64,000 nt of DNA. Origin: Blasia pusilla (taxonomy: Eukaryota). The DNA is taken from NCBI GenBank assembly GCA_050084515.1, contig CM114271.1:1736001-1800000 (forward strand), written 5' to 3'. This document shows, piece after piece, positions 5,791 through 45,845 of the stretch. The stretch's first letter is position 1, and each line of letters opens with the position of its first letter. The position numbers and the translations under genes were made by a program. The notes under the pieces were generated by a model, which was not told where the DNA came from, did no database searches, and saw only the letters and a list, made by a program, of their open reading frames with translations.

Positions 5791-5835
5791 TATACAAAAT
5801 ACAGAAGAAAAATATGGATAAAGATAGATTAGTAT

Positions 5836-13700: not shown

Positions 13701-14872
13701 GTGGCATGCATACTCAGGTGCAGCAGTTGGTGTCACGTTGTATGGTTTGTGTCCGGGTGAGGGCATCATTCAATGCCCCTACACCACAGTTACATCCCTT
13801 GCCTATTATGGGGTTGGGTTACCGTTGGAGTGTGGACTTTGCAGGACTATTACCGTTGACTGTACGACATGATCGATATGTGTTGGTGATGGTGGAGCAC
13901 TTCTCCAAGTGGATTTAGTTGGTGGCATTACCTGACAAGGCAAGTGAGGGAACGTCGTATGTGTTTCTTGATAGAGTGCTAAGTCATTTTGGTGCACCAG
14001 CTGAAGTGCTGACCGACCCGCGTACAGAGTTTTAGGGTGAGTTTTAGGTCTTGTGTGACAAGGCGTTGATTGATCATCGGACCACGTCTTGAGATCATCC
14101 AGAGGCGGATGGTTTGGTTGAGAGTGTGGTTCAGACGGTAAAGAGGGCATTGCGCAAGTATGGCCTACAGAAGGGACATCTTGGAGACTGGGATATTGAG
14201 TTGCCATGGTTAGCCATGGGGTATAGGTTAAGTCGCCAAGCATCCTTGGCTTCCTTCTCGCCTTATTTTCTGTTATACGGCCAAGATCCAGACTTGCTAG
14301 CAACAATTCTTCAGGAGTCTAATGAGGTGGTGAACCTTGATGACCCATAGATGTGGATGAGAATGTGTTCTCAGCGGGCATAGCTCTTTCGGAGAGTTGT
14401 GCCAATAGCCTTTGAGAACCTTGCCATTGCTCAACACAGGGATACGTTGAGGTATGCAACCATTCGGGGTGGAGGTTATCGACCATCGATTCATAGGTTC
14501 CATGTGGGGGACTATGTCTATTTGCAGCAGATTGCACTGACAACGTTGGATGTGACGGCATGCCGCACTATTTTACGAGTGCGCGAGGTGTTAGCTTCTG
14601 AAGTTCTCATGTTGGAGGGTCGTGATGGAGTTGTTTGGAAGGACCATGTGCGTAATCGTGCGCCATATCATCTTCCAAATGTGGATGGTACTGTTGAAGC
14701 CAGCTTAGCCATGATACGTGCTAGCTTGAGGTGCATGTTGTGTGGGTCTGCTGGTAACGCAACCCGTATGTTGGTGTGTGATCAGTGTTCTAGGGGTTGG
14801 CACATGATGTGTTTGACTCCACTTATGGATGTTGTTCCTACTGGAAGGTGGGTTTTTCCTCGATGTACTTAG
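7704..14872 (+). pseudogene. Element 1 polyprotein Gag-PR-DNMT-RT-RNaseH-IN-PHD (stops and frameshifts)
   Basis: Degenerate zinc knuckles and an RGG tract; protease VLLDSGAQ; RT RRMCGDY, NAPAEFQR, YIDD; RNase H HTDWS..GLGAVL..YASRS; IN HEELGH..CMVC, DFAG, ADGLVE; C-terminal PHD. Confidence 0.92.
10569..11525 (+). pseudogene. Element 1 C5 cytosine DNA methyltransferase domain (DNMT3-like)
   Basis: Motif I VLDLFGGISTG, II YVYVE, IV DLVISGWPCQ, VI YILENV, VIII AHRPRLWWTNL, IX ERERAMGF, X RRHVLGQVMD, in canonical order. Confidence 0.9.
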
Positions 14873-15049
14873 GAGAGGTAGATGACTTGATCTTTGCATG
14901 ATATGGATTTCAGATAGACGACTAATGATGGGGCAACCTAGCACATGGCCTTCTGATTTGTGCACCCAAGAAGGTGTATAGCATGTAGTAGATGTATAGG
15001 GCTACCCGAGAGTTAGAGGGACCTAACCGCCAGTGAGGGGGGGGCGAGT

Positions 15050-15629
15050 TGTGGTACACTTGTGTTTGTGCATGCTCTCATCTATGTTATGTATGTATGT
15101 GAGTATGGTATGTCATCGATGTATGTTGTATGACGATGTGGATTCGCACGACAGTTGTCATGACCACAGGAATTATATCGTAGAGTATAATGTGCTAGTA
15201 GAAGCCATACCTTATGTAGGGCTGTAGTGTCTAGGTAGAGATGCGGTTTCATACATAGGGTTGGGGGTTACTCCGTTGAGGGTGACTTTTCCAGTAGGGC
15301 CCGCTCTTAGGTTGGAGGATATAGTGTGGAGTGCACTCAAAGAACAGTTAGTTCTTTGAGTTGAGCCTGTTGCGTTGGGAGTTAGCCTTGGCAGTGAGTA
15401 GAGCTCTTGGCTATGGTGGTTCCCGCAAGCTTCGACCTGGATTCTCCCATCGTGGTGTGGGTTTTGCTCGATTGTATGTGATTCTATACGTGTTTTATGA
15501 CAGTAGGCCTTTCACGGATTTCAATTGTGGTACACTTGTGTTTGTGGATGCTCTCGTCTATGTTATGTATGTATGTGAGTATGGTATATCAACAATATAT
15601 ATTGTATGACGATGTGGATTCGCACGACA
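15050..15629 (+). repeat. Element 1 3' block B1-A2-B2
   Basis: B1 15050-15153 and B2 15526-15629 are both 104 bp. The B1/A2 junction is GACA-GT-TGTC. Confidence 0.92.
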
Positions 15630-15702
15630 GTATAGAATAGATTGTTTTATGAGGTCCCAAAATATTGAAGTGATAAAAAAAGAAACGAAATAAAGAATTC
15701 TT

Positions 15703-15940
15703 ACCTTGCATCGAGATAATGTGAGGTTGCATCAACAACATCCATTGTCATGGACGTAGTTGCATCATTTGACACCTTAAATGAGATGGCATGTGATTCC
15801 TTATATACATATTTATATAAGTATTTCAGAGCATAAATGATATTAGTGATTTCCAAATTGACATGACAATCAAAGAGAGTAAATAATAAAGGATTATAAG
15901 GAACAACCCAAAAATTATCCAAAGCTTGATCGCGCTTCAT
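15703..15940 (-). pseudogene. Helitron Rep exon upstream of the retroelement insertion
   Basis: DNFWVVPYNP..FDCHVNLE...KYLYKYVYK...YLDAR followed by a GTAAG donor. It joins YISSSQACWR near 5790 to give the canonical YLDARYIS..ACWR. Confidence 0.8.
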
Positions 15941-18930
15941 TATCTTTATATATATATATATTTAATATAAAGAAGAGGAATAAAACATTAAGATTTTTCC
16001 TTAAAAATATGTATAAATCATTGCAAGATAAAAAAAATTATACATGGGCATAGATTGCATACCTTCGATAAGTTGTGTCGTAGTATGTGATTGGAAATAT
16101 TCATTGGGAATCTTAAAAGTATGAGTTGTGCACCCGTTGTTGATAAAATTATCATCTTGCCAAACTATTGAAGTACTTTTGGAAAGAACATTGCGTCTTC
16201 CATCCTCGAGAAGAATAAAATCATTCTCAATAATTTTTGTTGCAGTATGTAATTGGAAATCATCATTGGGAATCTCAGAAGTATTATCATGAGTCATACG
16301 CCTGAGAAAAGAGAGTGGAAATTGTAAATTTTTAACTAAGTCAATGACAAAAGAAATTCATGAAATGATAAGTATAGTGAAAGATTACATTCCTTGCAAT
16401 AGTATTTAAAGTGTTCATTGGAATATCCTCCATCATAGTTGGTAGAGCATCACAAATGGATTGAACAATTGAGGTAGAAGAATCATGTCTTCCTTGTAGG
16501 GCTTTCCTTTTTTTGTTATGCTTAAGTCTCGGCACAAATAAGTCGTTTTCATTTTTGTGCCTCCCCGCGTAACACCTTCCGGAAATCATGTATAGAAATG
16601 GGATTTGATGGAATAAGAATTTTGCAAAGAATGTTGCAAAGATAAAAAGTTATTATCAAAAAATATCAATGGAATTGAGTATGCATACCAAAGATGAGTG
16701 GGGAGATGAGATGTATGTGCCATAGGCAAAACTTACGTTGGTGATGATTCATTGAGTTTCGGAGGTAGTTTTTTTTTTCAATTTGCCAACTTTTGAGCGA
16801 GTAAAGCTCGATTTCATTTTTGTCCCTCTATGCGGAGTACCTTTCGAAAATCAAATAAATTTGTTGGATTTTCTAGAAGAGGAAGTCTGGGAAAAAAAAC
16901 CATAGGAGAATTGCATAATAATAAACCCTAAACCCTAAAAAAAAACCATGCAAAAATTACATAACAATAAAAAAACCATTTGAATAAATGTTGAGAAACA
17001 CACAAAATATATCACTTGTAATGTGTTTCGTACTCGTGCATGGCACGGATACCTTGCATACGTCGGAGAGATTTTATTGATTTGGGTATGAAGTATTTCA
17101 ACATATCTTTGTGTAGGCGGTAAATTGGTGATGTCGCGTAGTGTTGAATTCTCCATCATGCTAATATTCATGTACACTTATCTGCTCAATACGTAAGCAT
17201 CAAACGTTAGGAAGTATAAGAGAATCAAAAAACATATGTACGGATTAAAGTAAAGTTTTTAATTAGTATCAAAAAATGATATGTGTGTACTAACTATTTG
17301 GGAATAAATTAGTAGAAAGAGTTTGGAATATCGACAGCCCATAAACAATTGAGGCAAACCCAATTTTATTCCCCAATGATTTTTAAATTTTATTGCTAAA
17401 ATTTGGAAATCATTAATTGATAAAATTGGAAAACAAGTAAGGGATCAATTAGGGGGATAATGGAAAAAAAGTTTAATTTTATAATATATGGGGGAATAAT
17501 AATGAGGAAAATGCATGAGGATATATTAAGTGCGAAATTTATTTTTTAGAAAATATGGAAATAAGGTGGAGGGAAGGGGGTCGTGCAAAACAAAGTCAAC
17601 CGTCGGATATTTTCAATTGCGACAGCTAGATCTAGGGATTTTGAATCAGACGGCCTACCCATAAAATCTAGATGAAGTCGTCTGATCTTCACCAAGATTT
17701 TCACCGCATACTACGCATGCAACTTTGAGCCTGGAGAATGGGAATGGGCGGGAGAAGCCCGCCAGAATTCATTTCTGTCTCCTCACCTCGCCTCAAGTGC
17801 GCTTCCCCTCGCGCGCTCGCCCCCAAGCATGCATATCCCCTCGCGCTCATCCCCTTGCACAATTGCGTTTAGTGTGGTCGCCCCTCGCGCCTTTCGTTGC
17901 CTGCGCTCGCCCCTCGCTCCAAGCGCCCTCGCTGGAGCCACACTTGCTGTTGTTGTTGTCGTGTGCCTTGACCTGATTTTTTGCACTGCATTGGCCCTTC
18001 AATGTGCTCCCACCTCCATCTTTGGCGCCCTGCAGAAGCTCCTATTTTCTTTGGCAATCGCTCTCGGCCGCATTGCCCATAGTTGGGATTTGCTAAGTGT
18101 TTACTCCCGTCTGACCTGAGCACGCCCGCCTTACCTTGAGCTCAATTTTTTCGATGCCTCATAGCCTTGCCCTTGATCGTAGTCCGCCTTCACTATGAAT
18201 TTCCTTTCCTTGTTGTCTCAACTTTTTTATATTCATGTTCACATTCTTGTACATGTTATAATCTCATTTTGGCCCTGAGCGCTCCCGCTCAACTATCCGT
18301 TTAGCTATTGCTTTGATTTTGTTTATCATTAGTGCATAGGGGAAGAGCCTTTACTTTGCAGAAAGCAAGCTACAAGGAAGGGGAGATCGAAATGGTTGGG
18401 ATCATATTGATTCTCTAATACTCTTGTTTTTCATAGAGATAGGGCTCACCACTTGGTGTATATTATCTTCTTCTCCTTTGGGTTCTCAATCAAAATCCAA
18501 GTTTGATTTCTTTGAATAACGTCCAACCCTCAAGGCACTCTCAAAGTTCCGAATATGACTAACTTTCCCGGAGGTGCCACAATGTTCTACTGAATGCGAC
18601 AAAAGCTTAGATGCTTGGCAATAGACTCTCCCAATGTGTCAAAACCCTAATTTCAAAATGGACTACTTAGGCGGTGATTAAGATCAACGGCTACAAATAA
18701 GCTTTCTCCATAACGGTATTAATAGTTAAAACTGCTCCATTCCCGCAACTCAAGGAATATAAACATAAGAGTAGAAACATATGGTGTGGAAATTTCAAGT
18801 ATACACGTTGTATTTTTAAGGGACGCCCAAGAGTACACATGCAACATGCCAGTGCATGGGTTGATTTCATAAGCCACGCGTTACTCAACGGAGGCTTCCT
18901 CTAACCCAATCCTCCTATAATAGTATAGAT

Positions 18931-22100: not shown

Positions 22101-24059
22101 ATGCATGCTCTTGCATTTGCGTTATAATTCCCAATAGGTTTTGTAGGTTGGTGTCAAGGGAAACCCATCACTCTTTGACAAGTTGCTCTAGAGGAGCGAG
22201 GTCAAATCACATGTGTGCCTCCAATCTTTGCTAGTCTATTTTGTTAAGGTTAGCCCATCATTTCGCAACAAATCACCCTTGAGTGAGCTTTTGAAGGTTG
22301 ACTGGTTAGTGGACTATAGGTTGAGAGCTCAACCTATAGTCCACTAACCATTCAAACTTCAAAAGCTCATTTTGATCTAGGAAATCCATCGCTTTACACA
22401 TGTATACAAAATACATGACCAATCTTCCAAAAAATGGGTAGGTCCATACACATACAGAAACACACTCATACAAATACACCAAGACCACACGGTCGTCCCC
22501 TAAATTGGCAATTGGATCTCCTAACTCCAAGTAACACACATCCCATGAACATGACTTGCTCTACTACCACATATGCATTTAAGAAATAACCATTATCTTG
22601 TGGGAACCACATCAAGAGGAGAGCTTACACATGATATGTGCCACCATCCAACGATCACACGTCAATATGGTGGTTGCATCCCTTGTAGATCTACACAGCT
22701 CGCATGTACTACTTCCAAGCTCACATCAATTTTCTAGTTTTTGGCTTTGTTCATTGAGGTCGAAACAAAATTGAATATTTGTTGGCGCAAGTCCTAACAA
22801 TCCATTGTAAAGCAATAGATTGTGGTTCCAACTCTATACTCAAGGACAAACGGCACGATACATAGAATCATAGTTTTGGACATGATACTTCCAACCCATA
22901 CCATCTCCTCCCTCCAACATGAGGACTCCGGTAGGTAACACGTTGCACATATACAAAATTTTGCACCATGCAGTAATATCTAGCATCATGGGTGCGTGTC
23001 ATCTCTTGTAAGTGTACATTATATTTGGGATGGAATTTCCTAATCCTTAGATAATATTCTCCTAAAAAAATGGTGACAAATCGAAAGATGTCTCGATGCT
23101 AATCAACAACTAAGTTCTCAAATGTGTCATGCGTATGCATAGGCAATTGAGAGGAAAGGCAAGGACTCTATAGAGTCCTTGCCTTTCCTCTCACTTTTTG
23201 TTGGTATTGGAACATAGCTTGGGAAGTACCTCTGATGTGATTTTGGAGCTTAGGTGGAGTAAAAATAACGTGCTCAATATTGGGGTTTGTTTTAACATCA
23301 CTAAAGGGACTCTTGGGTGAAAAGCTCAACCTTGTGCCCCATTTAGGGATTTCTTTGCACTCAAAGTTGGGAGTGCATTTACTCTCGAGGTTGGGGTTGA
23401 ACATAATCGCATGCTTGGATATTTCAAGATTATAAGGTGTGTTAGGTGAAGTCACTCCATAATTTTGTTGGACAGAGACGGATGAGTGAAGAGATGTTGC
23501 TTCTTTCCCTTTCCTTCACTGGATTTCATAATCGTCCTTCTTAAGGTCATTTTCTTCTCATCTTCTAGATTTTCTAAGAATATTAAGATAAGAACAAATG
23601 CAAATGATTGATATTTCTCTTGAAAAAAAGGGAGCAAATCCTAATTGCTTAATATAGGAAAATTAGATGAGAATTCATGTAACTTACTAAGATGGAGATC
23701 TCTGTATGTTTGCCTACAATTGGCAGTTTGGAGAGTCGACAATACACAAAGTAGTTAGAAGTGTGGTTTTTTTGCCTTCCATCATAGGATACTTGAATTA
23801 GGATAGTGTATTTTTCAGAGTCAAGTAGTTAGAAAGGTTCAATAGACATATCTTCATTTATTGAAGCCCACATTGAATCAAGGTGGCGCGAGAAAATAGA
23901 AGACATCTAAAGATCAACAGTCTCCATTTCATCTAGCAATAAATGTTGAACTCACTTGAATTTGAACGTGGCAGAAGTTACCTATGTTGCACAAACGGGA
24001 ACTAAAATCTACCCTAAATAAAAACAGGTGTAGAAGGAGACATGTGTCAGAAGGAGGGC

Positions 24060-24996
24060 CCACTTTAGAAGATGCATGTTGCAATAGAGGTGATTGCTAT
24101 GCGATAGGCATTCATGATATGGACGACATTAATGCAAATGTTATGTCGAGATTTATTGGAGAGGTAATCCTTCTAACATATCTACAATTTATTTTCTTAT
24201 GGGAGCTTTGTTTTTGGGAACAAGGGTAGATAGTAATATAGTAAATCTCACCAATTCATTACATGTTATGTACATGAGTATATTTATCTCAGTGTCGACT
24301 CTATTCTGAATGAGGGGATGAGTCGTATCTATCTAAGTGAATTTTTGAACATATGCTTGCCTTCCGGATTTCCTCCTCATCGTTTGTGTTTGAAGATTGG
24401 TGACCAATCATGTTCTTACGAAACATGAATGGATCACATGGAAAGCAAACGAGATAAGATTGGCGATTTGTGGATTCATGCAATATTGCATAGATGCTGA
24501 AATTATTCCATGGAAGAATATTGGAGATTGAGTCTTTATTCCACATATACCATTGATTGCATCGGATTCCGGTTTGTCATTTGATTTACGTAGGTTTCAA
24601 TTCCCTATTCGTCCACCTTTTGTTATGACTATTAATAAGTCTCAAGATCAACCGTTGCAAAAGGTTGGCATTTACTTGCCTACTCCTGTATTTTCTCATG
24701 GTCAATTTTATGTAATATTATCTAGGGTAGGGAAGAGAAGTTCCATCCACGTACCATTGGAAGTGATGAACATTCAAATTAGGAATGTGATTACACACGA
24801 AATATAATGTATAAAGAGATACTTGGATGAAATAAATTTTTGATCTGCAAACATTTTTCTATTTGACATATGCCAACAAGAAAATATTTCACATTTAATG
24901 GACAACAAACAAATTTTGAGTGAATCAATATTAGTGTCGAAAAAAAACTTCCTAAACGTTTTTATATTTCCTGTATATTGCAGGGGCACTTACTAG
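24060..24996 (+). mobile_element. Helitron 3' fragment: Pif1 helicase C-terminus plus 3' terminus
   Basis: [47 protein letters not shown], an imperfect hairpin CCTGTATATTGCAGG, then CACTTACTAG|T at 24996. Confidence 0.8.
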
Positions 24997-27965
24997 TAAA
25001 TAAAATAGAGAGAAACAAATCCACTATTGCCTTTCCGATCCGGACATCGTCGTACTTTGTCCGAGAACCCGATCAAAATTAGGGTTCGTTGAACTTCCTT
25101 ACCCTTACTGGCGAAAAACCCCGGTACGACTCGGCTTTTAACATTCCCGATCTGGACTTCCAAGATATTTCCCGTGTAAAGGTGACAGAACAGCCGACTT
25201 CCCATTAAAAAGTAAAAATGAAAAATAACTGTCCGAACCCCACGGGATGCCGCGATGACGACGGGCATAGCCGCATAGTCTCCTGGACAGGTGAGTGAGT
25301 AGTTACATATTTCCGAAGGGTAACCCATGTCCGGGGAGAACCGGCTCAACCGGGATTAAGTGTTGACCTAGTCGGCAGCATGTTTTAATTACCGATTCAG
25401 TTTCACCGGCCAAAAACCGACGGCCTATGCCAGCTCTCCTCCGTTGTATTCGTATCAGAATAGTAGACCGGCATCAGAAAACTTGCAAGGACCGGGAATG
25501 CACCGGTTCTCTCGAGAAACCTGACTCCCTGAGGATAACCCCTGCACACATGCGCACTCATTGCCGTCGGGAGTCGGGAGCCGGGAGTTCAATAAAAGAC
25601 TCGGGACTCACGGGAAAAGACGGGAATTCGGAAATGATGATTCCTTTCCACCGAGCGATCTTGATCTTGACGGCAGTTGAGGGAGTTCCATGGCGCGCCG
25701 TCTGCTGTACTGTCATCATATATGTCCTTATGTGGAAGTCAATCGAGCAGGTACAGGAGAATACATGTGGACCCGTACAACTCACGCGGATCGAGTTGAA
25801 TTTTCCGACAGTTGTGCCGTTCGATGTGGACAGTAGTAGACTAGTAGTAGTTCGCATGCATCTCGACAAAGCACCTGTTTTTTCCCCCTTTCTTTTGCCA
25901 GAGGAGAATTCAGGGGGTTCTCACCATATCGCCCGATGATATCGATCGGGGGCCTCAGAGCGCCTCTTGCGTCAAGTTTGCCACCTGTCCTTTCCGATTT
26001 CCCCGGGAATTTGAAATGATGGAAACCGAGGAGTGAGCGCGAAGTTGCGAACTAATTTGACGCGTTAATCTCGGATTAATGGATATCGTCACTGTTTTAT
26101 GGATGAAATGCAAATGAGGTCTCGAACAGTGCCATATTTTACGTTTGTATTTTGTATGTAAATACAAATTTTATACTATCATATTGTACACGGGTACATA
26201 TTATTCTCTTAACTTAGTTTGGTTGAGGCTTAATTTATTATTTTTCTTCTTCTTTAATTCCGTATAATGATGCATGTCAGCTGGAGATAAGTTTCAAAAC
26301 ACACGTCCATATTCTAATGGGCGACCTATAAATATAATAAAACATAATAGTACGTATAATAAGACATACTAGTGGGTTAATGAGACAAAAGAATCACAGT
26401 TTAAATTTCGTTTCTGGAATCAAATTAGATGAATAGAGAAAATGAATTTGAATGGGGAGAAGAAATTTTAATTAAATAAGAAATATTTTTATTAATTTTT
26501 ATTATATTGCGTGATATTAAAATATAATAAATTAAGATCATTAAAAAATATTTTTTTAAAATTCATATTTTATGGGAAAAGAAATTTTAATGGAAAAGGA
26601 GTAAATGTTATTTAAATTTGATTGAAGGATAGAATCGATTAGGAGATTGGGATATCATTTAAACTTTAATTAAGGATTGGAATTACTTAGAGAGGAAAGT
26701 ATAAACTTTAATAGAAACATTGGATTGGAATTACTTAGAAGGGTGGAATGTTATTTTTCTTCTAAAATTTATGAAAATAAAATTAGATGTAAATATTTAA
26801 ATGAAAAATTTATTATTCTTAAAAATAACCATGTTAATTCAAATTTGACATTTGGAAAAGGAAAATGAATTTGAATGGAAAAGGGAAGTGATTTCATTAT
26901 TTAAAATTAACTAAGAATTTAATTAGTGAATGTTATTATGGTAGGAAGAGTGGAAGGGGAAGGATAGATATTGTTAAAAATTTTATGGAGGAGTGAAATT
27001 ATTTTGGGGAATTGGGTGTTACTTAAAAGTATAATTTTACTACTCTTTTAAATTTTAAAAATTGTAAATATACTTAAATGTTAAATTTAAAATATTTCTA
27101 AATTATTAAAAAATAATTTTCGTGCACAAGCATAGGCATGCTAACAAGTATCAACTACAAGAGGATGGTTTTGTAAATCCATCTAATCTATTAATTAATT
27201 GGAGGATGTAATTTTATTTTCAGTTGATACTGGTTAGGACCCGTGAGGGAACTTGCGATGCACGAATCCTTGTAATTCAATGTCTTTATACATATGATCC
27301 TTTATACGTATTGTGTATATGTCAGGCGTCGGAAATTCCCAAGTTCCAAAAAACGCTTGTTGAATTCTGAAGTTTTCGCCATTCTAGAGCGCTCCTCAAA
27401 GAAAAATATAAACGTGGCAATATTTCCTCAAAAATATGTTTGGTTGCATTAATTGGGTTCATATAATGAGATTGGTAAGGAGAGTTGTCACATCTGAGTA
27501 GCCGATAGGCCGAGATCTATCGTGGATAGGGCGTAGGAGCCAGCGGACTATCTTGAGTGTAACTTTGTCCCACAGTGTCGGATGAGGTTGAGGATAGGTC
27601 CATTGTGTCAGGAACGTCGTTTCTGACGACTTCCATGTTGAGGTCTTTTACAGCCGGGTGACTTGTTGACCAGGTCACCTGCCCCTGGTAACCTGTGCAC
27701 ACAGGTTACCAAGGGAAGGGCTATTTTTAGGAGAAGAGCCTTTTGGCTCTTCCCAACCTATATAAGAGAGGAAGATGGCTTTCTTAAGCCATCTTTCTCA
27801 TGTTGGGCCGTTGGAGCACCTCCCTTGTAAGTGTGTGAGCTAGGACTAGGGTGCTAGCGTCCGGATTCCTTGATAGCACAGGGTGGACGAGGCTCGATAT
27901 GCTGATGTAGATTGAGGAGTGGAGTTTTAGGTAGGGTGTGCCGTTTTTACTACTCTTTATTTTTT

Positions 27966-27979
27966 ACATGAGAAAGATG
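27966..27979 (+). promoter_or_regulatory. Self-priming primer-binding site of element 2 (equivalents at 6203-6215, 37849-37863, 54541-54554)
   Basis: ACATGAGAAAGATG lies immediately after A1 and is the exact reverse complement of CATCTTTCTCATGT (27790-27803), about 30 nt downstream of TATATAA (27759). Confidence 0.75.
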
Positions 27980-28904
27980 TCAAGGGGCTGATGGGAATTC
28001 GCTGTTTGCAGGTAGGCAAGCGAGTTGCCTCGGTTGGGGAGCCCCCGAGACGCGTGTGTGTGCCATTTTGTGTCATTTTTCTGTTCAGAGGCGTGGGGCG
28101 GAAGCGCTGTCCGTTTTTCTCAGATTTTGCTGGTGCAGATTGTTGGGGGACAGCAGTCGAGTGTAGCGTGTGGTGGGGCGTCGGATGTATGCAAGTGAAG
28201 GCGTCGAGAGAGAAGGAACGGGCAGGTTTGGGTCTTGCGGTCCACGGGGGTCAAGTAAAAGGCTAGAGTTAGGTCTCAAATTTAGGGCGGGCGCGGACGG
28301 GCGGCGGCGGTGGCGATTTAGCCGGGGGCGTGGCGGACGGGGCGGGCGCAGCAGAAAGCGCGACGGCGGGCGGACTGGCGTGCGCGTGATGGCGCCCGCC
28401 ACGCGGGAGTGTTATGTGGCGGAGATTGTCATATCATGTGGAGGAGTGCATATTGACGGGCAAAGAAAGTTGAGGGCGTGATCAGGTTGGTTACCCATTC
28501 GAGTCCCTTTTCCCGCACTTGTCGTGGTGTGATTGAGAGTGTTGGATATCGGGTAGTAGCGGTGCTAGATGGGTGCGATGATGGTGACGAGTGTAGATTC
28601 TTTTCATGTGTAGCATGTTGGTGGATATACGGCGGTTGCGAGTAGGGTCGCGTCGCGTGTATGACTCGAGAGTGTGTCGCTAGGTTAGGTGAGTCGGTTG
28701 GGGGAGGCTCATGGTGAGCCCGAGTGTTGAGCGCGCGTGAGGCCGGGTATGTCATCACGGGATTGACGTTAGCATAGGTGAGCTAGTGAGGCGTGTGGGA
28801 GACTCTCGGTGAGTATGAGTGCTTGAGCGGGTGAGACAGGGTTTGTCATCACGGCGTTCTTCCAGGGTTCGGAAGAACGGGGTAGTCTGGCGATGGTAGT
28901 GGTG

Positions 28905-31900
28905 TGACACGGAGTGGAGTGAGATACCGAGGGGTTACCGAGGAGCTCCTCGACATCCATCGTCGGATCGATCGTCATCATCGATGGACCGGTCCGGTGA
29001 CGAGATCACCGACAGAGACAGTAGTACTTGGCAGGAGATGGATGACATGGGCCATCGGGGCATGCATCGTTTCTCGGGTGTAGTGGGCACCATCGACTTA
29101 GAGGATTTCATCCAGGAGTTCGACACATGGTGCGACTTCCAGAGATACGGACCCGACACGGTTCAACCCTTTCATGGCATGGAAGGGGTTGTTCCAAAGA
29201 TTTTGGAGGGTCCTCCGATGGATGACTACATGGAGTTCCGATCACTATATTCATTAGAGATCGATGCCTGGAGGATGTATTGGGCTCCAGGGTATGTGTC
29301 CACTAGTGGTCGCGAGGCATATGATGGGATTGTGAGAGGAGAGAGACCCACACCATCATCCCGGAGACTAGATGGAGAGGAGGGCAGTGACACAAAGCGA
29401 TGTGCAGAGACCCGGGTGGTAGAGGGCCACCCGGCCCAAACCCCCACAAGTGGAGTTCTTCCGACGGTTGGGGAAGAGCTACCGGGCGTATGCACCGGCA
29501 AGTCAAGAGTCTACAGGATTTTCAGCGACGATCGGTGAGAGTCTAAGAGAGGCCTTCACACGCATGAGGAAGCGATCATTGCTACGTTTGAGGATCGAAG
29601 CGCGGTCCCAAAGATTGGTACTGGGGTTCGGACCAAGAACTACGGAGGAGAGTCCGAGATGCGGTCTTTGATTCACACAAAAAGCCCACATTGAAGGTGG
29701 TCTTTGAGTTGTCTGAGCGTATTGAGCTCAACATGAGTGAGGAGCAGGTAGTGACCGCTAGATTTTCTCGAGAGTCAACAGGTCCACGAGCGGCGGTGAC
29801 CCCACCGGTGCCACAGCGAGCACCAGTACCACGGGAGCGGGCCAGTGTGCCTAGAGAGCAGGGCGGGTACCGTGAGCCTATGAGGCAATGACCCGCACCT
29901 ACATATGTTGCCCAGCAGGGACCGGTGTGGTCTTGTTGGACGTGTGGAGGGGCCCATAGGCAGAGAGACTGCCCACAGCATGGGAGTGGACCACCAACGC
30001 CTCCGATTGCGCAGGAGCCACAGAGGATGGCCCCACCACAGCACCAGTGTGACCATTGCCACAGATATGGTCAAACTAGGGAAAGATGTTTTGACCTTCG
30101 CCGAGGGGCACGTCCAGAGGTAGGCCGAGGGCCTGGGGGCGGTCATCCTGAAGGAGGTCGGGGAGTTCTTCCTGGACGTGGTGGTAGAGGACTACCACCA
30201 GCCAGAGGAGATGGAGCAGGAGCACCAGAGCCGGCACTTCTCTCACGCATTGATTAGTTGGAGCAGAGGATTGCTGCCATGACGATGATGCAGCTAAGGG
30301 AAGGCACGGAGCTGCGAGCGGCCTAGTGTGACTCATCTCTACCTCTTACCCGACCGGTGAGGATCTCTCCAATATGGGATTCATCTCAGAGTGCAGCCCT
30401 GGTTGAGGCAAGCTCGGTGGTGACTCAGGGTGCTCGCGAGAGGCACCGAACCATCGAGAGGTGGAGTTGAGATTGACCCACCTAGAGGGGACCGATGGGC
30501 GGCAGCCGGGTTCCCTGATCGTTCACATTGTCGGAGGCACTACACACACCATCGATGGTGCCTTGGCGACCAGCGGTGCCTCTGATTCAGGCACCTACGT
30601 CAACGTCACGAGGAGTTGGAGTGACAACTCCTATGCCGGCTCGAGTGGAGTCAGTGTCGACTATAGTGTTGGAGGTGGCCACTAGAGTGAGTCAGACTCC
30701 GCTATTTTCCGCCTTAGAGTTGGCGACGTTGGGAGTTGGACCAGCTGAGGTGTTCCGGTTGGCCACCACGTCGTGTGAGCGTGGAGAGGGGACTGCTTCT
30801 TGTTCAGAGGTAGTTGAGGAGGTGGTGGACTTGCCCTCGAGCGGGGTGCCGGGACGTTCCCCATAGAGTCATGGCATGCGGCGGGCGGGAAGTTGGTAGA
30901 TATGCCACTCGACCGCCATATAGAGAGCGAAGTGGTGACACATGGAGTAGTGTTACTCGATAACCGAGCTGGAGTATTTTGCTTGGTTAGTCCGATGGGG
31001 ATAGTATACCACCCGCAACGCGTCCTACTTGATTCGGGAGCGCAACCCTTGATGTTAGGGAAGGCGGCGTGTTTAGCGTTGGGGTTACGGAAGGCCGACA
31101 TTGAGCCTTGTCCCTTCCGATACACCTCGATTGGGGCATATCACCCACTCAAAGATATGACTCGGACAGAGATTGTTGTGAGAGTCCAGCCAGAGCATGC
31201 GACGGATAGTGCTATGGTGCACACACGTGCGATTACGACACCTGCAGAGTCGTACGATGTGTTGGTGGGGAGTACAGTGTTATATCCCCTAGGATTCATC
31301 CTTGACTTCTGGGAGAAGACCGTTGCTTATCGGCCAGGATGGCGGTGAGGTGACGGTCGGATGAGTCAGTTACCCGTGCAGTTTGCGGGACAAGGTGGTC
31401 GATCAGGAGGTGAGTCTGTGACCACGTTGGCGGCTTTCATAGGTAGTGTTAGCTGGCCAAGAGAGTTGTTGGAGGGGAACGCACATGCGGAGGATGTCCC
31501 AGTAGCGGATAGTCCCACGGAGAGACAGGCCATGGCGGGTGTCTCTTCCCATGTTAGCGATGCCTCTTCACCATTATGGGGTACGACTCGAGAGCTATAG
31601 AGGAGTGCCGACGACCTCGTGAGGCAAGCGTGGAGTCATGTTTTTATCCCAGAGCAGCGAGAGTCACGTGGCGATCGGGCTCTTGGAGTGGAGACGATGA
31701 CCCCACTAGATACCACACCTGTTGTGTGGCAATGCCCAGAGGAGGGTGTTAGGGTGTTAGATCTCTTTGGAGGGATTAGCACCGGATTGGCTGCAGTATT
31801 GCAGGCGGGCACACGGGTGCATCAGTACCTTTATGTCGAGAGAGATGAGACCGCACGGCGAGTATCATTACGTCACGTGGCGAGATTGGTCCAGAGGTAT

Positions 31901-34900
31901 CCTGAGTTGTTGTCGGTATCTGCAGTACGGGGATACCAGCATACGCTACTCGTCGACATATCTTTGGTGGGGGCATAGGATCTGGATAGAGTTGGCACCA
32001 TTCATTTGGTGATTGCTGGATGGCCATGTCAAGGTCATTCATCAGCTGGCCGAGGATTTGGATTGCAAGATCCGAGGTGAGGGATGTTTTGGGAGATGCT
32101 GCGAGTAGTACGACACTTGCAGCAGAGTCAGATATGTTCTCCAACGTACATTTTGGAGAACGTGCCGTTGTTGGGAGATACTCGTGCACGTGTGATGACG
32201 AGTGTACATCAGGTGAGGTCCTGGTTGGGACCGGCTGTGTTGTTAGATGCAGCGAGAGTTGGGTCACGTGCCCATCGCCCACACATCGTGGTGGCGAACT
32301 GATACCATCGAGGTATTGAGTCGAGCCTACGTTGAGTCGAGAGCACCACATCTCACGGTGGATGCTATTTTGGACCGGGCGCCGATCTCGGTGGTGACAC
32401 GCGATGATAGACCACCGCGTTGGCCATGGCCAATAGGGTGGGGGAGTTGAGGGCAGCCTTACCTACGCGTTGGTGAGCTTCAAAGATCCCATGCCTTTGT
32501 AGGAGGGCAGGCATGATTTGGGATGAGGTGACCGGAGTATTGAGGAGCCTATAGCGAGATGAGCGCGAGCGCGCCATGGGGTTCACTACTTGTACTACGG
32601 CGGTGCTGGGGATGACCGAGGCATCACGGAGACAGTGTTGGGGCAGCGATGGACCTCAACTGTCTCACATGGATAGTCACCTAGGTATGGCGAAAGCAGA
32701 GACGGATGCGAGTGTCATCCATGCCCTCACGCCCACGAAGTTGGACCACCGCCGGCTGTGGTTTGTACTTGGCATTGGATGGGGCGAGACAAGGAGAGAT
32801 AGGCACCCATGGACTTCCTGGGACGTCGTTCGAGCAGAGAGTGCGAAGGCGGCTAGAGTAGCACATGTTCATTTTTCGGATATGGAGCATGGTGTAGGAG
32901 GTCAGAGTGGAGTGGCTGTTGCGGAGGTGGCTAGGGTTGCTACATAGCAACCAAAGCCGGAGGTTGCGTCCTCTCCGAGTGAGGTCACGATGGAGACTTG
33001 GGAGCCTGTGATAGGTCTCAAGTTGATAGGAGGAGAGCGACGGCAAGTTCATAGGTTTCTGAGAGGGCATGTCAGTTGTTTTGCCTTCAGTATGAGAGAC
33101 TTGGGTACGCTGAAGGGTCCCGGGATACGGATTGAGTTGGCTAGTGATACGCCGATCTTTCGTCGACCCTACAGGTATTTTGATATGGAACGAGCCTTGA
33201 TTCAGAGCAGGAGTCATGACTTGTTGGAGGCAGGACTTGTGGAGTTGTCACATGGGGAGTATGCATCTGCCACAGTCATGCCGGCGAAGAAGGATATGTA
33301 TGGCAATTGGACGGATAGGCGGATGTGTGGAGATTACGGTCCTATCAACCGACAGACGAGGTCAGATCGGTATGCCATGCCTACTCCTGAGGAGATCTTT
33401 GATGCGGTAGGGCATGCAAAGATCTTGAGTACTTTAGATCTTCGTGTTGGCTATCATCGCCTTCCTATCAAAGTTGGAGGGACGGGAGAAGACATCATTC
33501 TAGGGGATAGATCGGTTCGGGAAAGATTGCTTATATCAGTGGCGGTTCTTACCATTTGCGTTGAAGAACGCGCGTGCGGAGTTTCAGAGAGTGATGGATA
33601 GGATTCTGGCTGGCTTGGATTTTGTATGATGTTACATAGATGATATTCTTATCTTGATTCCATGGTTGAGGAGCATGAGGACACTTGGAGGAGGTGTTTG
33701 GCGATTGCAGTTACATGGACTGCAGTTACATCCGGCAAGTGAGATTCTTTCAGAGCAGATTGAGTACTTGGGACACACCATATACCCGAGTGGGTTAGGC
33801 ATTCAGTAGACGAAGGTAGAGGCTATTGCGTAGATTCCACGCCCTACAGATGTGAGTCGAGTCCGAGCATTTCTTGGACTGGCGAACTTCTATCGACGGT
33901 ATGTCAAGGGTTTTAGTGCGATCGCAAAGTCTTTGACCTTGTTGATGAGACTTGATCAGGTGTGGTTGTGGGGAGATGATCAGGAGCGAGCATTTCAGGA
34001 GCTCAAGGACAGGTTGACGTCCTCACCCATTTTACAGAGACCGGTTAGGGGTCGCCCATTCCAGTTACATACGGATTGGAGCATGTTGGGTCTAGGAGCA
34101 GTGCTTACTCAGAGGGATGACGAGGAGAGGGAGTTTGTTGTGGCTTACGCGAGTCGATCGAACAACATTGCAGAGGCGAAGTACAGCTCCTATGAGGGAG
34201 AGTGCTTGGCTGCAGTGTGGGCCGTGGCACATTTTAGGTGCTATTTATTTGGCAACCCTTTCACACTTATCACCGATCATCACCATTGAAGTGGTTGATG
34301 GAGTCCGACAAGCTTACGGGAAAGCTTGCCGGTGGGCTCTATTACTACTGAGGAGTATGAGTTTGAGGTGGTTCATAGGCCGGTCGGCTGAACCAGGATG
34401 CGGATGGGTTGAGTCGTAACCCATGTCCGAGTAAGAGAGACGTCACGGGAGCTCGATGGCACTGAGAGAGTGATGAGGAGATGGTGCCCGGTTGGCATGC
34501 ATCTACCTATCTTTGTTGGTTGACTATGGCAGGTCAGCCACAGGTGAAGACTCCAGTGGTGGGATTGGATGATGAGTCTTTGGATCCGGAGGTTAGTGAG
34601 GAGGCGACAGGTGGTCGTGATATCCATGACGACGTGGAGGTTGTGGACTTCTTGCGCACAGGCGTCATTGCGAGTACAGTGAGTGCTAGGGAGCGGGATC
34701 GGATCCTACAAAGAGCCAAGAGGTTCAGGTGGGAGGGGACTCACATTTTGCGGTTATGGGGAGATGGTAGGATACGAGTGGTACCTCATCCCTCCCAGCG
34801 AGCACGTGTAGTGCGACATGCCCATGAGGAGTTGGGACATTTCGGAGTAAAGCGTACTTACAACTTACTCTAGGTTCAGTATTGGTGGCGCGGCATGCAT

Positions 34901-35965
34901 ACTGGGGTACAACAGTTTGTGGCTTGATGTATGGTATGAGATAGAGTGCGAGCATCCTTCAATGCTCCCACTCCGCAGTTACATCCTTTGCCGATTATGG
35001 GTTTAGGTTATCGGTGGAGTTTAGACTTTGCGGGACCTTTGCCATTGACAGGGCGTCATCATAGGTACGTGTTGGTCATGGTGGAGCATTTCTCCAAGTG
35101 GATAGAGTTGGTGGCACTACCAGACAAGGCGAGCGAGGGAACAGCTTATGCGTTTCTAGATCGTGGTGCTTAGTCACTTTGGTGCACCGGCGGAGGTGTT
35201 GACTCGACCAGGTACCGAGTTCAGGGGAGAGTTTCAAGCCTTGTGTGATCAGGCCGATAGATCACCGCACCACGCCCGGGATCATCCCGAGGCGGATGGA
35301 TTGGCGGAGAGAGTGGCTGACGGTGAAGAGAGGATTGCGCAAGTATGGCTTGCAGCGAGGGGGCGATTGAGGGAGTGGGAGCTCTGATTTGCCATGGTTG
35401 GCTATGGGTTATCACTTTAGTCGGCAGCATCTTTGGCGTCATTTTCACCGTACTTTTGCTCAAAGAATTTTGGGAGAGAGCCAGAGAGTTTACTATGGCC
35501 TTTGAGAACTTAGCTATTGCCCAAAGATAGGATACATTGAGGTATGCGACCATTCGTGGAGGAGGTTATCATCCAGGGGATTAGGAGGTTTCATCCTCGA
35601 GATTACGTGTATTTACAAAGGCGGCACCCACGACGCTAGATGTCACATCAGTAGGGCCACGATCCACGTGTGCGCGAGGTATTACCGACCGGAGTCCTCA
35701 TGTTGGAGGGATAAGATGGTATGGTTTGGAAGGATCATGTGCGCGATTGACAGCGCCATGTCATCTTCCGAACGTAGATGGGACAGTGGATCCAAGCTTG
35801 GCAAAGTGGTACTGCAGCTTGAGGTGTATGTTGTGCGGATCTGCGAGGGGTGCAGCCACCATGTTGGTATGTGATGGTTGTTCTCGAGGGTGGCATATGT
35901 CATGTCTGACCCCCCCTCTTGATGTGGTTCCCACGGGACGATGGATGTGTCCGAGATGTGTATAG
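28905..35965 (+). pseudogene. Element 2 polyprotein Gag-PR-DNMT-RT-RNaseH-IN-PHD
   Basis: CWTCGGAHRQRDC and CDHCHRYG knuckles, VLLDSGAQ, YIDD, HTDWS, HEELGH, DFAGP, and PHD CMLC..CDGC..HMSC..WMCPRC. Many indels. Confidence 0.9.
31748..32690 (+). pseudogene. Element 2 DNMT3-like methyltransferase domain
   Basis: VRVLDLFGGISTG, IHLVIAGWPCQGHS, YILENV, RAHRP, ERERAMGF. Confidence 0.88.
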
Positions 35966-38900
35966 GGTAGTAGGTCATGTCGAGAGATGTGATATTTTTT
36001 CTCGGAGTTAGGGGATCCAACCGCCAACTAGGGGGCGGTTGAATGATCTCCATGTATATGTATGAGTTGATTTTTGTACATGTGTGGATCGATCCGTGTG
36101 TGGGGAAGATCGATGTTGTGTGGTGTAGATGTGACCAGCGATGTATGTTGTGTAGCGATATGTATGCGCACGACAGTTGTCACATCTGAGTAGCCGATAG
36201 GCCGAGATCTATTGTGGATAGGGCGTAGGAGCCAGCGGACTACCTTGAGTGTAACTTTGTCCCATAGTGTCGGATGAGGTTGAGGATAAGTCCATTGTGT
36301 CAGGAACGTCGTTTCTGACGACTTTCATGTTGAGGTCTTTTACAGCCGGATGACTTGTTGACCAGGTCACATGCCCCTGGTAACCTGTGCACACAGGTTA
36401 CCACGAGAAGGGCTTTTTTTAGGAGAAGAGCCTTTTGGCTCTTCCCAACCTATATAAGAGAGGAAGATGGCTTTCTTAAGCCATCTTTTTCATGTTGGGC
36501 CGTTGGAGCACCTCCCTTGTATGTGTGTGAGCTAGGACTAGGGTGCTAGCGTCCGGATTCCTTGATAGCACAGGATGGACGAGGCTCGATATGCCGATGT
36601 AGATTGAGGAGTAGAGTTTTAGGCCGGGTGTGCCGTTTTTATTACTCTTTATTTTTTGTTGAGTGATCTCCATGTATATGTATGAGTTGATTTTTGTACA
36701 TGTGTGGATCGACCCGTGTGTGGGGAAGATCGGTGTTGTGTGGTGTAGATGTGACCAGCGATGTATGTTGTGTAGCGATATGTATGCGCAAGACAGAGTG
36801 GCTTTGAAACCTGAATTATTGAATATGGATTTGGGCATGGCATGGTCCCTTAGGGGTCCTTACTTGTATAGATTAAGAGAGGATAACTTTGAAGGTCACT
36901 CCTACCTCTGATTGACGTTGTCTTTTGAGGACTCTTATCTTGTTGACATGTGTTGTTTTAAAGAATTAAGTTAAGAAAGAAGGTAAGTAGTTTAGGGAAA
37001 AGAATAATATATATGCCCATGTAGTACATGAAAAATTTAATAGTTATTTAAATAATATAATTAAATTTGAATGTGACCCAAATTTATTTATTTATTTCTA
37101 AGAATTTTTTATCATGAATAAATAAATAAATTTTTTATTTTTATTTTTTAATAAAAATTTATTCACTATTTAGAATATCCATTTTTTTATAAAAATAAAA
37201 CTCAAAATAGAAAAAAGAAAAATAAGAACATCCCAAAAAGGGAAAGAATCAAGAAATGTACAATGGAATGCAAAAAAATATAGCAACAATCCAACATATA
37301 AACCAACTCACCTAGTTACATGATTAATAGCCTATCACGGCTTTTAGGATAGATCGTTGAGATGTAGTAGAGCGCCTTCGTGAGTAATGTAGGACAGACT
37401 CGGTAAGTCAAGGATGACCTTTTGAGGCCCTAGGAAACCTGAGAGAGTAGGTTTCCCCTTCGTTTCGCTTCATTTGGAGCCATATTGAGGAACTTACTAT
37501 TTTAGGTAAGTACTATTTTTGAGTATGTGATTGACTTTTTATTTTTGGTAAGTGGCCATTGACCTCCTACATCAGAACAAGAGCCAAGGAGGTGACTTGG
37601 GAGCATAGGTTACCATGGAGAGAGCTTGGGAGACGGGAGGGGTATACCTCAAGGAGAGAGAGCTTGAGAGCTCATTCTCTCTTTGTTGAACCTCTTGGCA
37701 TGAGGCGGAGGAGTTATTGTCTTGCTTGCCTTGTGTGTGTAACCCAAGCCTCCCACTAGGAGAGTGGGTTTGGTTTGACATTGATAGAGACATGTGAGAG
37801 TGCACATATTTGAGAGCTATGGTGTTGAGAAAGATTGGATCTTATTTTACAAAGAGAGAATGAATGAGTGAGAGAGCTTCATGGAGGAGCTCGCTGGTCA
37901 CTTGGTGGTTTTTCAGGTTGGAGATTGTATTCCCCGTTCAGCGGTTCATGGGAGTGCTCATCGGAGCAAGAGCTGTTTACTTGTGATGTTTCCTTTGCCG
38001 ATTTTTCGTATGGAAGAGTGGCATGCGGAAGCGCTGCCCAATTTTTATAGGAATTGAATATAGGGGCAGATTGCTCCATGCCGGTGCTCTCAGGAGCACC
38101 ATGTAGCTTGCTGATTTGTGTTCTCACAGGTTTTACATTTTCGTTGGAAGAAATCAGCGCGGAAGCGCTGCCAAATTTTGTGTACGAGAAAGAGACGTTC
38201 GGTTTTACGGCAGTCCCTGTCAGTTTTTACTTGAATGTCTGATTCAATTATTTTTTGACCTTGTTGTAGATCATGAAGTTGTGCAGGCTGTGCAAAAAAT
38301 GATGTGCAATTTGGAGTTGCGAGCAAAAAGTTATGGTCAATCTTGCAAAATTGCCATTGCTAGGTGATTTTAGGGTTAAATTTTTCAAACCCTAAACCAG
38401 CCGCCATGCCGGCGGCGGCCTTCGCCATCATAGTCACCGGAAATGGTCAATGGTCAATGTTGATGGTCAAATATCATTGTCAACGGTCAACTTTCACCAT
38501 CAACGATCAACTGTCACCATCAACGGTCCACGGTCCACCATCGTCTGTTGCCACCGCCTAGCGCTGCTCAGAGCCACGTTCGGCCGTTGTCCACCCTTTG
38601 ATTGCCGTTTCCGCCATTACAGAGTGGAGGGTCTTCCATGACGACCGTTGATCCTCTAACTTGTGCCGCCACCACATACTTTGTTTTGGCCGCCATCGTC
38701 ATTGCAGTTTCGTCATCAACGAGTGATGGCAGATGACCTCGGGTTATGGTGTTTGAGTTTTCATTTCATGCTGCTATGTTGTGATTGGTAGCCGCTCGAC
38801 GACGATCGAGTACCGTGCCGTGACGCCCGTAGCCACAACGCGCCGCTGAGTGCTGCTCGTGGCCGCTCCGCACCGTCTCGATCGTGGAGCCGCTCCTTCA

Positions 38901-41900: not shown

Positions 41901-42423
41901 GCGAGCCAAGGCGATAGTGACTGATGAAGAGTCCTACGACATCTTGGTTGGTGGAGCAGTGTTATACCCATTGGGGTTTTTCCTGGATTACTGGGAGGAG
42001 TTAGCGTCCTACAGACCAGGATGCCAGTCAGGTGATGGGCGCCTTAGCTCATTACCCGTTTGATTCACAGGTGCAGTGATGGAGCGACGGCCAGGAGATA
42101 TGGCGACCTTAGCAGCATTTAGCAGTGCTATCACTTGGCCTAGTGATTTGATCGAGGGACATGTCCATGCAGAGGATACTCCCATTCCTGACATTTCTAT
42201 GCAGAGGAATGTCATGGTAGCCCCATCAGTCCGTGGAGGAGAGGTGCCGCTTTGGGGCTCGACTAAGGAGCTTTGACGCTTAACCACTAAGCATGTGCAA
42301 ACGGCATGGAGCGAGATGTTTGCACCGGAGTGTGACAGGTCAGAGGAACCCCAAGTAGGCAGGAGTGCTGCTATGACCCCTTTGGACACCACCCCGATTG
42401 TGTGGTGCATCCCAGAGAAGGGT

Positions 42424-43385
42424 ATTCGGGTGTTGGATCTCATTGGAGGGATCACCACTAGGTTAGCTGCTGTTTTGCATGCTAGAGTGCGCGTGCAGCA
42501 ATACTTGTATGTGGAGATTGATGATACTACGAGGCGCACTTCACTTCACCATGTGGCGCTGTTACGCCTCCGTTTCCCCGACTTATTGTATGCGGCTGCC
42601 ATTCAGGGTTACCCGAGTTCCCTACCAAGGGACATTTCATTGTTGGGGTGCAGAACTTGGAGCGGGTAGGGACCATAGACTTGGTCATTGGTGGTTGGCC
42701 GTGTTAGGGCCAATCGAGTGCTGGACGAGGTAGCGGGTTAGCTGACACTCGGTCCAGGTTGTTTTGGGAGATGATGCGGATCTTGCGACATTTACATGAG
42801 CATCAGCCTCGTTCTCCACCATACATTTTGGAGAATGTGCTGATTTTGGGCGATTCGAGGTACCGCGTGGTGACGAGTGCACATCATGTGCGCGTATGGA
42901 TTGGCCCGGCAGTGTTGTTAGATGCAGCGAGTGTAGGTTCTAGAGCACACCGCCCGCGTCTTTGGTGGACTAACTTGGTACCACATTATGTGTTGCGGAG
43001 GGCTTATGCGAGAGTGGAGCATCCTTCCGATTTGTTGGTGGATTCTATATTGGATCTGGGCTGGAAATCATAGGCAGTGAGGCACGATGATCGACCATTG
43101 TTGACTGTGGTCAACAGGATTGGCATGCCATGAGTAGCCTTTCCCACATTGGTGAGTTTTCTCGCTTCCTATGCATTCAAGGAGGTCGGACCTGGCTTGG
43201 TTTGGGATGACCAGGTACAAAGGTTGGTGGATCCCAACGCCGATGAGCGAGAGCGAGCGATGGGATTCCCCACAGGAGTGACGGCAATATCGTCACTATC
43301 AGAGGTATCATGACATCATGTCTTGGGTCAGGCGATGGACCTGAACTGCTTGACATAGATTTTTAGCTTAGGAGTAGCTGAGCAA
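42424..43385 (+). pseudogene. Element 3 DNMT3-like methyltransferase domain
   Basis: IRVLDLIGGITT, DLVIGGWPC*, YILENV, AHRPRLWWTNL, ERERAMGFP, VLGQAMDLNCL. Confidence 0.88.
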
Positions 43386-45824: not shown

Positions 45825-45845
45825 CCCTAAACCCTAAACCCTAAA
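45825..45845 (+). repeat. (CCCTAAA)3 plant telomeric repeat inserted in the element 3 integrase
   Basis: Three exact CCCTAAA units flanked by the direct repeat CGCACC (45821-45826, 45846-45851). Absent from the other copies. Confidence 0.8.

Follow-up and report, generated by a model that had tools for sequence, protein, structure and literature searches.

The 64,000-nt stretch of Blasia pusilla DNA analysed here (GCA_050084515.1, contig CM114271.1, positions 1,736,001 to 1,800,000 of the forward strand), referred to as the window, contains four full retrotransposons with long terminal repeats (LTRs), as is apparent from self-comparison of the window. They all lie on the + strand and represent three families: E1 (5836-15629), E2 (27486-36795), E3 (37333-47679) and E4 (54062-63222), E2 and E4 being about 93% alike and forming one family. 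In each element, the bases directly following the first terminal repeat, A1, i.e., those at the position of the primer-binding site (PBS), are the exact reverse complement of a segment of 13-15 nt within the A repeat itself (4/4 elements, three families). Chance does not account for this complementarity, and the features read from the sequence make self-priming of the Tf1 type its best and highly probable explanation. In Tf1, a Ty3/gypsy element of Schizosaccharomyces pombe, the start of the transcript is complementary to the stretch right after the 5' LTR, loops back and primes (PMC5006619, PMC6317226). Furthermore, the ends made by reverse transcriptase (RT) and the ends used in integration can each be read from the sequence of these elements, and they differ.

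Priming site and primer segment

In E2, the 14-nt PBS (27966-27979; this and all features below are on the + strand) begins at the first base past A1 and pairs with 27790-27803. The latter segment would form the first 14 nt of the transcript and the start of R, with a predicted R-U5 region (the repeated and the unique 5' parts of the LTR) of 176 nt (27790-27965). The 13-nt PBS of E1 (6203-6215) is the reverse complement of 15349-15361 in the second repeat, A2; the 15-nt PBS of E3 (37849-37863) pairs with 37672-37686 and 47374-47388, and the 14-nt PBS of E4 (54541-54554) pairs with 54366-54379 and 62910-62923. The A1 copy of the primer segment in E1 (6029-6041) and the A2 copy in E2 (36482-36495) differ from the complement of the PBS by one transition each, as expected from decay after insertion. 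A preliminary description of this DNA had given the sequences and coordinates of the sites and segments, including the single A1 mismatch of E1, and all of them proved right.

The position of the segment within the repeat is practically constant. The distance from the TATA-like motif to the start of the primer segment, judged by eye, is 29-31 nt in all families, in line with the roughly 30 nt of the preliminary description. The motif reads TATATAAG in E2 (27759-27766, in A1, 31 nt before the primer segment) and in E4 (54335-54342), ATATAG in E1 (15319-15324, in A2) and GTATAC in E3 (37643-37647, in A1). Because this spacing is conserved, the transcription start is predicted to lie at the primer segment. 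From the 3' end of the segment to the end of A there are 161-163 nt in all four elements. The duplex begins at the exact base where the likeness between A1 and A2 stops, i.e., at the expected start of minus-strand DNA, and its orientation is such that the 3' end of the LTR segment adjoins U5. The absence of a TGG-starting PBS, also claimed in the preliminary description, is borne out as well: on visual inspection, the 20 nt that follow A1 contain no TGG in any of E1-E4, a tRNA-type PBS being judged here by its TGG.

It is very improbable that the complementarity is functionless, arising by chance or as a by-product of an LTR palindrome combined with a duplicated PBS-like stretch. The LTR does hold an imperfect PBS-like copy adjoining the segment, so that sequence duplication plays a part, but the controls leave little room for such an origin. 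Matches of the observed length or longer appeared in 1 of 2000 dinucleotide-shuffled LTRs for E1 and in 0 of 2000 for each of E2, E3 and E4, and random 23-nt window probes gave 0 of 5000 for each element. The same placement, spacing and length recur in three families whose A repeats show no BLAST match to one another (identity over pol is 65-74%). In addition, the changes are compensatory: in an alignment of seven sequences from the three families, 9 of the 11 aligned duplex pairs are altered on both sides, in agreement with the earlier statement that the sequences differ while the pairing is kept.

Within the four whole elements, no other reverse-complement match of at least 11 nt to the A1-end/PBS probe was found. 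The start of A and the end of B, the other terminal repeat, were also considered as a possible second priming site; matches there were of chance level only, at 9-10 nt, and the idea was rejected. Scanning 800 kb for inverted repeats with loops of 150-170 nt gave no further PBS type, and a scan against Rfam gave no match.

Priming by a host RNA (a tRNA half, a tRNA fragment or another small RNA), with the LTR complementarity serving circularisation, dimerisation or packaging, is unlikely. Long-range 5' pairings are common in retroelement leaders, and to that extent a pairing of this kind could have a role of its own. Three families would nevertheless need three host primers, each equal to the RNA at the element's own predicted start; furthermore, the duplex begins precisely at the minus-strand start base, with no TGG nearby. 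Half-tRNA priming does exist in plant copia elements (PMC6317226).

The RNA predicted to start at the segment supports self-priming at the level of secondary structure. The length of the putative R-U5 (175-177 nt) and its fold are conserved across families, and the duplex between PBS and segment forms the closing helix in the minimum-energy folds of the predicted 5' RNA of all three families. The z scores of these folds are -3.2 and -3.2 in the two families other than that of E1. In the seven-sequence alignment, GTTGRRCC and GGYYYGAY form a second helix, which adjoins the primer segment on its 3' side and is 96% paired; of the 11 pairs of a further hairpin, 6 covary.

In addition, each of the three families has a strong hairpin whose 3' arm is formed by the primer segment; its 5' arm, located between the TATA box and the predicted start site, is an imperfect, same-sense copy of the PBS. 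The E2 hairpin (27768-27799; 5' arm 27768-27781, 3' arm 27786-27799, overlapping the primer segment) has a folding energy of -22.4 kcal/mol and a z score of -6.25, with 0 of 500 shuffles reaching it; the corresponding values are -14.1 kcal/mol and -3.5 for E1 (15335-15361, in A2) and -20.4 kcal/mol and -4.3 for E3 (37650-37685, in A1). The 5' arm is absent from an RNA that starts at the segment and present in the copy of the 3' repeat; we therefore propose, as a hypothesis, that the start-site hairpin keeps the 3' copy of the self-primer silent. This hairpin over the primer segment and the conserved R-U5 fold are new here; full-text searches of the available literature gave no description of a start-site hairpin.

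Further copies were obtained from a scan of metagenome contigs (290 pattern matches, 116 relatives, 80 kept). All the relatives kept are E1-like and have the PBS core of that family, so that the scan added copies, not families; scans of viral contigs revealed no relatives. The complement is at least 10 nt long without interruption in 8 of 18 copies, and a 12-nt core with at most one mismatch is present in 11 of the 18. The longest complement reaches 17 nt (L048=L049), and in L006 a compensatory CA/TG change in the extension brings the pairing to 19/20. These E1-like relatives carry a clean TATAAAG 26-30 nt before the primer segment.

One copy (L052:3244-3878) is aberrant. Its PPT-B-A-PBS part (PPT, polypurine tract), with 17 nt of PBS, passes directly into an inverted piece of A that reads backwards from the segment to the beginning of A. 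This piece is the reverse complement of nt 1-181 of A, and the flank sets in after its terminal ...TCATGACA. Such a fold-back is expected if the PBS at the 3' end of a DNA strand paired with the segment and was elongated there; the inverted start of A then seems to have served as the right end of the copy. The fold-back fits a report that a single-stranded PBS is retained at the 3' end of about half of the Tf1 cDNA (complementary DNA) (PMC11042837). A different rearranged 3' end is present in L041:11197-12092 (= L065:4923-5818, one locus in two contigs), where an inverted A fragment is followed, about 500 nt on, by the R-U5 part of A, 10 nt of PBS, 5 nt of filler and B.

The fold-back of L052 would also be expected if the RNA that snaps back onto the PBS came from the segment's internal or 3' copy, or were the 3' terminus of a transcript stopping there, and such a long RNA primer were copied into plus-strand DNA. 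Priming of this sort is nonetheless quite unlikely: it gives no role to the conserved 29-31 nt spacing between TATA motif and segment, its 3' copy would be sequestered in the strong hairpin in all families, and in the least decayed copies the complement ends 26 nt after the TATA box, as fits a start site.

Several observations weigh against self-priming from the transcript start. The predicted 5' RNA of E1 folds no better than its shuffles (z -0.40). Only three independent families are available, and the consensus structure was derived from the same alignment that was used for the pair counts. Within the E1-like family, each PBS matches its own segment no better than the segments of other copies (3.61 vs 3.90 mismatches per 17 nt), and PBS positions 13-17 disagree with the copy's own LTR in many copies; the covariation announced in the preliminary description thus holds between the families and gives no signal within this one. 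Inverted repeats of at least 12 nt with loops of 150-170 nt are not enriched (7 in 800 kb vs 11, 3, 2 and 1 in other loop bins); all 7 sit at PBS positions, and they are special only in this placement at LTR ends. Finally, a tRNA scan found 0 tRNA genes in the window and 36 loci, none being there to compare with the PBS. Collectively, the exact start of the duplex, the location of the segment at the predicted transcript start, the conservation of R-U5 and the fold-back of L052 favour the Tf1-like reading put forward in the preliminary description.

From the observed complementarity and position of the PBS and the segment, we infer fold-back priming by the following route. Transcription would start about 30 nt after the TATA box in A, and the first 13-17 nt of the RNA would fold back onto their complement, which starts at the first base after U5. 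By analogy with Tf1, a cut at the 3' end of the segment would yield the primer, and its extension would give a strong-stop DNA of about 160 nt. Plus-strand DNA would then copy the primer and in this way rewrite the PBS in each cycle. Such rewriting would explain why the pairing is kept while the sequences drift, which makes the kept pairing a signature of the mechanism and not a proof of selection. In the 3' repeat, the segment may be locked in the hairpin with the upstream PBS-like arm, leaving only the 5'-terminal copy free.

Split repeats, integrated ends and joints

Integrated copies run in the order A1-PBS...PPT-B1-A2-B2, in all four window elements and in 9 distinct related loci. None of the 4 window copies and none of the 17 distinct related loci has a B repeat upstream of the 5' A. 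In place of the identical complete LTR at both ends that is expected of a Ty3/gypsy element, the 5' end carries A alone and the 3' end B-A-B. The integrated ends consist of TGTCA(C/T) of A at the start and ...GCACGACA of B at the finish, i.e., TGTC...GACA, and they are flanked by perfect 4-bp target duplications in E1 to E4. Among 12 related elements, the duplication is perfect in 10 and matches at 3 of 4 positions in the remaining 2. The conserved purine tract (...AACCRCC....GGGGGCG) stops exactly at the start of B1, and the internal boundary between B1 and A2 reads GACA-GT-TGTC, i.e., two integrase ends abutted.

In E2, the arrangement is as follows. The duplication GAGT (27482-27485) precedes A1 (27486-27965), which starts with TGTCAC. 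At the other end, the polypurine tract region (36019-36037) ends in GGGGGCG directly before B1 (36038-36175), which itself terminates in GACA. The GT spacer (36176-36177), A2 (36178-36657; 96.1% identical to A1) and B2 (36658-36795; 97.1% identical to B1) come next; B2 again has GACA at its end and precedes the second GAGT (36796-36799). In E1, A1 (5836-6202) follows GTAT (5832-5835), and the 3' end (15025-15629) comprises the PPT (15025-15046), B1 (15047-15153), the GT spacer, A2 (15156-15522) and B2 (15523-15629), with GTAT repeated at 15630-15633. In E3, A1 (37333-37848) follows AGCC (37329-37332) and starts with TATCAC, mutated from TGTCAC; its 3' end (46885-47679) contains the PPT (46885-46904), B1 from 46905, A2 (47035-47550) and B2 (47552-47679), and AGCC returns at 47680-47683. 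In E4, A1 (54062-54540) follows ATAT (54058-54061), and the 3' end (62440-63222) contains the PPT (62440-62459), B1 (62460-62597), A2 (about 62608-63084) and B2 (63085-63222), followed by ATAT at 63223-63226. The identity between A1 and A2 is 93.5% in E1, 90.1% in E3 and 96.7% in E4.

Two features of the repeat ends deserve mention in their own right. At the B1|A2 boundary of E4 (62597-62608), a 10-nt insertion (TACGGTGTCA) that partly repeats the start of A lies in the junction of the abutted ends. Moreover, the last ~38 nt of B (...GCGATGTATGTTGT.TAGCGAT.TGTATGCGCACGACA; for example 36138-36175, 15116-15153 and 47642-47679) are conserved across families whose repeats are otherwise unalignable. 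Only about 6 nt are conserved at the start of A, and the conserved end of B exceeds what an integrase end usually needs; this UGUA-rich end may be part of a terminator.

As the PPT precedes B and the PBS follows A, the repeat defined by reverse transcription is B+A. The view of the preliminary description that B+A is the functional LTR is accordingly upheld for the repeat made by reverse transcription; it does not extend to the integrated form, where B+A never forms the 5' end and the element runs from the start of A to the end of B.

In the second joint, between A2 and B2, the final U5 base directly adjoins the base that comes first after the PPT. Its variants are the 10 nt of PBS and 5 nt of filler retained in L041=L065, a 19-nt insert in L011 and, in E3, one extra A at 47551. 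The base-exact character of this joint and its variants make it look like a joint between the two ends of finished cDNA. Within a single element, B1 and B2 share subfamily variants, and a fixed difference between them occurs in 0 columns (9 elements), which indicates that B2 is rebuilt in each cycle and not inherited from the parent's B2. Inheritance via a read-through RNA was set aside, since it fits poorly with the absence of a fixed difference.

The 3' ends of the related loci occur in a long and a short form. The long one, PPT-B-A-B, is present in 9 distinct loci. In 15 distinct loci that leave room for 400 nt or more, PPT-B borders directly on the flank. The short form at L008:13368-13575 (PPT-B only) and the long form at L074:7604-8263 (PPT-B-A-B) share the same insertion site and target duplication, with interiors 91% alike and distal flanks 99% alike. 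At least some short forms are hence B1/B2 deletions, and the short A...B form as the primary product was set aside on account of this pair. The counterpart of such deletions is found in the window: a solo A-B unit (3373-4001), an E2-family relative of about 75% identity with the same primer segment, is bounded on both sides by the target duplication TTGT, likewise perfect, and is an A1/A2 product.

Since the integrase sites lie at the B|A boundary inside the RT repeat, the integrated form needs cDNA in which U5 has been joined to U3, the unique 3' part. Self-priming would give the canonical cDNA B-A-PBS...PPT-B-A, the U5 end of which could become joined to the start of U3 either through ligation, giving a two-LTR circle, or through an end-to-end strand switch. 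Integrase would then open the abutted-ends B|A site next to the PBS-side A and insert the product. We consider it reasonably probable that the integrated A1-...-B1-A2-B2 arises in this manner. Counting against the model, a two-LTR circle opened at random should also yield the form A-B-A-PBS...PPT-B, which none of the 13 long copies has (4 from the window and 9 from related loci). The process must therefore be polar, with a polarity that the model leaves unexplained; a linear molecule whose right end is extended on a left end would explain it. As a speculation, B2 may supply the sequence downstream of the poly(A) site, termination then taking place at the U5|B joint only and not at U5|PBS.

Coding content and surroundings of the elements

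The copies are old, since many stops break their reading frames. Nevertheless, the RT-RNase H-DDE integrase order of Ty3/gypsy elements can be recognised, as can TG...CA ends with a short target duplication: Pfam models RVT_1, RT_RNaseH and Integrase_H2C2 match E4 and E1 in that order. In the pol frame of E1, the HHCC and DDE regions of the integrase and methyltransferase motifs are readable by eye. The DNA_methylase match (PF00145; 10284-11100, between gag and RT) is weak in the decayed E1 and lies below the cut-off, at 17.9 bits. A PHD finger (PF00628, 34.7 bits) is encoded after the E1 integrase at 14732-14872, within an open reading frame (ORF) spanning 14384-14872, and occupies the spot of the chromovirus chromodomain. 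No match to the tyrosine recombinase PF00589 was obtained in the 19 ORF pieces scanned, a subset of the window ORFs.

The proteins most similar to those of the window carry PF00145, RT, RNase H, rve and PHD domains and belong to Marchantia polymorpha, Sphagnum fallax, Calypogeia fissa and Closterium, which points to a bryophyte as the probable host. PF00145 is listed for many of the closest bryophyte proteins; among the 34 closest proteins, PF00628 is listed in 4 and the chromodomain PF00385 in 0, and relatives also list PF00665 and PF17921. Altogether, the window elements represent decayed copies of an integrase-bearing Ty3/gypsy lineage, whose pol includes a cytosine methyltransferase, whose integrase is followed by a PHD finger and which is most likely primed by its own RNA.

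As for the surroundings, the shared orientation of the four elements is accompanied by a strong excess of G over C on the coding strand of +0.18 to +0.28 per 2 kb (6001-16000, 28001-47000 and 54001-64000). The AT-rich spacers between the elements show no such skew. Inverted fragments of related elements lie in these spacers at 22384-23122, 24288-24729 and 49999-50992, and a 15-nt inverted repeat with a 114-nt loop is located at 49628-49771.

Comparison with known systems

The primer duplex of Tf1 is 11 nt long, and further conserved U5 structure surrounds it; in the present lineage the duplex is longer, at 13-17 nt. As in Tf1 and the sushi group, the window elements lack a TGG-type PBS, and the stretch after the LTR can pair with the predicted beginning of the transcript of the element itself. 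The fold-back and PBS-remnant copies likewise resemble Tf1 cDNA that keeps its PBS at the 3' end (PMC11042837). In contrast to the Tf1/sushi chromoviruses, the window lineage has a PHD finger in place of the chromodomain and a methyltransferase in pol, and it differs from Tf1 by the start-site hairpin and the shifted terminal repeats.

The priming mechanism is not new, having already been predicted for many plant elements: self-priming is established for Tf1 and has been predicted for the Tf1/sushi group as well as for the moss and clubmoss clade Tcn1 and the TAR elements of Ty1/copia, amounting to 12% of the plant elements surveyed (PMC6317226). The elements described here resemble the Tcn1 clade and TAR elements in having non-seed-plant hosts and in that self-priming is predicted from sequence (Neumann et al. 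2019, PMC6317226). Unlike the window lineage, Tcn1 elements are chromoviruses grouped with Tf1/sushi, and the available part of that survey describes no unusual LTR layout for them (PMC6317226). The self-priming predicted here would extend the mechanism to a lineage for which it is not noted in the available parts of the literature examined. Self-priming frees an element from host tRNAs and defeats annotation tools that seek tRNA-type PBSs, and is therefore worth recording in a further plant lineage with its own DNA methyltransferase.

In terms of described domain content, the window lineage resembles KnitGypsy-Dnmt3 of Klebsormidium nitens, a Gypsy LTR element from the streptophyte lineage (de Mendoza et al. 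2018, PMC5890265), which is reported to carry a Dnmt3-type methyltransferase inside its Pol polyprotein (PMC5890265).

The boundary between B and A, GACA-GT-TGTC, is comparable to the retroviral two-LTR junction ...CA-NN-TG..., and integrase is reported to cleave palindromic LTR-LTR junctions in foamy virus and HIV-1 (PMC1180852, PMC1905944). In retroviruses, however, the junction occurs on circles only, as a side path, whereas here it is present in every RT-made repeat, and its use is apparently obligatory.

A parallel to the repeat layout itself lies outside the integrase-bearing elements. The window elements share split direct repeats, A1-coding-B1-A2-B2, with the PAT-like and Ngaro-like members of the DIRS order. 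Unlike that order, they have a DDE integrase with an H2C2 finger, 4-bp target duplications, TG...CA ends and a clear PBS and PPT. DIRS-type elements are not known to make target duplications. The split direct repeats are called typical of DIRS-type elements (PMC5890265, PMC7192593), which encode a tyrosine recombinase and for which no primer is reported to have been identified (PMC7192593). Full-text searches of the available literature gave no description of a combination of split direct repeats with DDE integrase, target duplications, PBS and PPT. The present elements thus combine a readable PBS and PPT with a layout so far tied to tyrosine-recombinase retrotransposons, the priming and end restoration of which are described as still unknown (PMC7192593). 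In practice, programs that require identical terminal LTRs will miss or mis-delimit such elements.

Taken as a whole, the evidence allows a joint reading that we offer tentatively, at slightly less than even confidence. It envisages a streptophyte Ty3/gypsy lineage with integrase sites inside the RT repeat, in which U5-U3-joined cDNA would be opened at GACA-GT-TGTC to give a DDE-made A1...B1-A2-B2 provirus with target duplications. B2 would be rebuilt in each cycle, perhaps as the downstream half of a terminator active at the U5|B joint only, and the hairpin would act as an anti-primer. If true, this reading would bring the LTR and DIRS types of replication together in a single element whose PBS and PPT can be identified.

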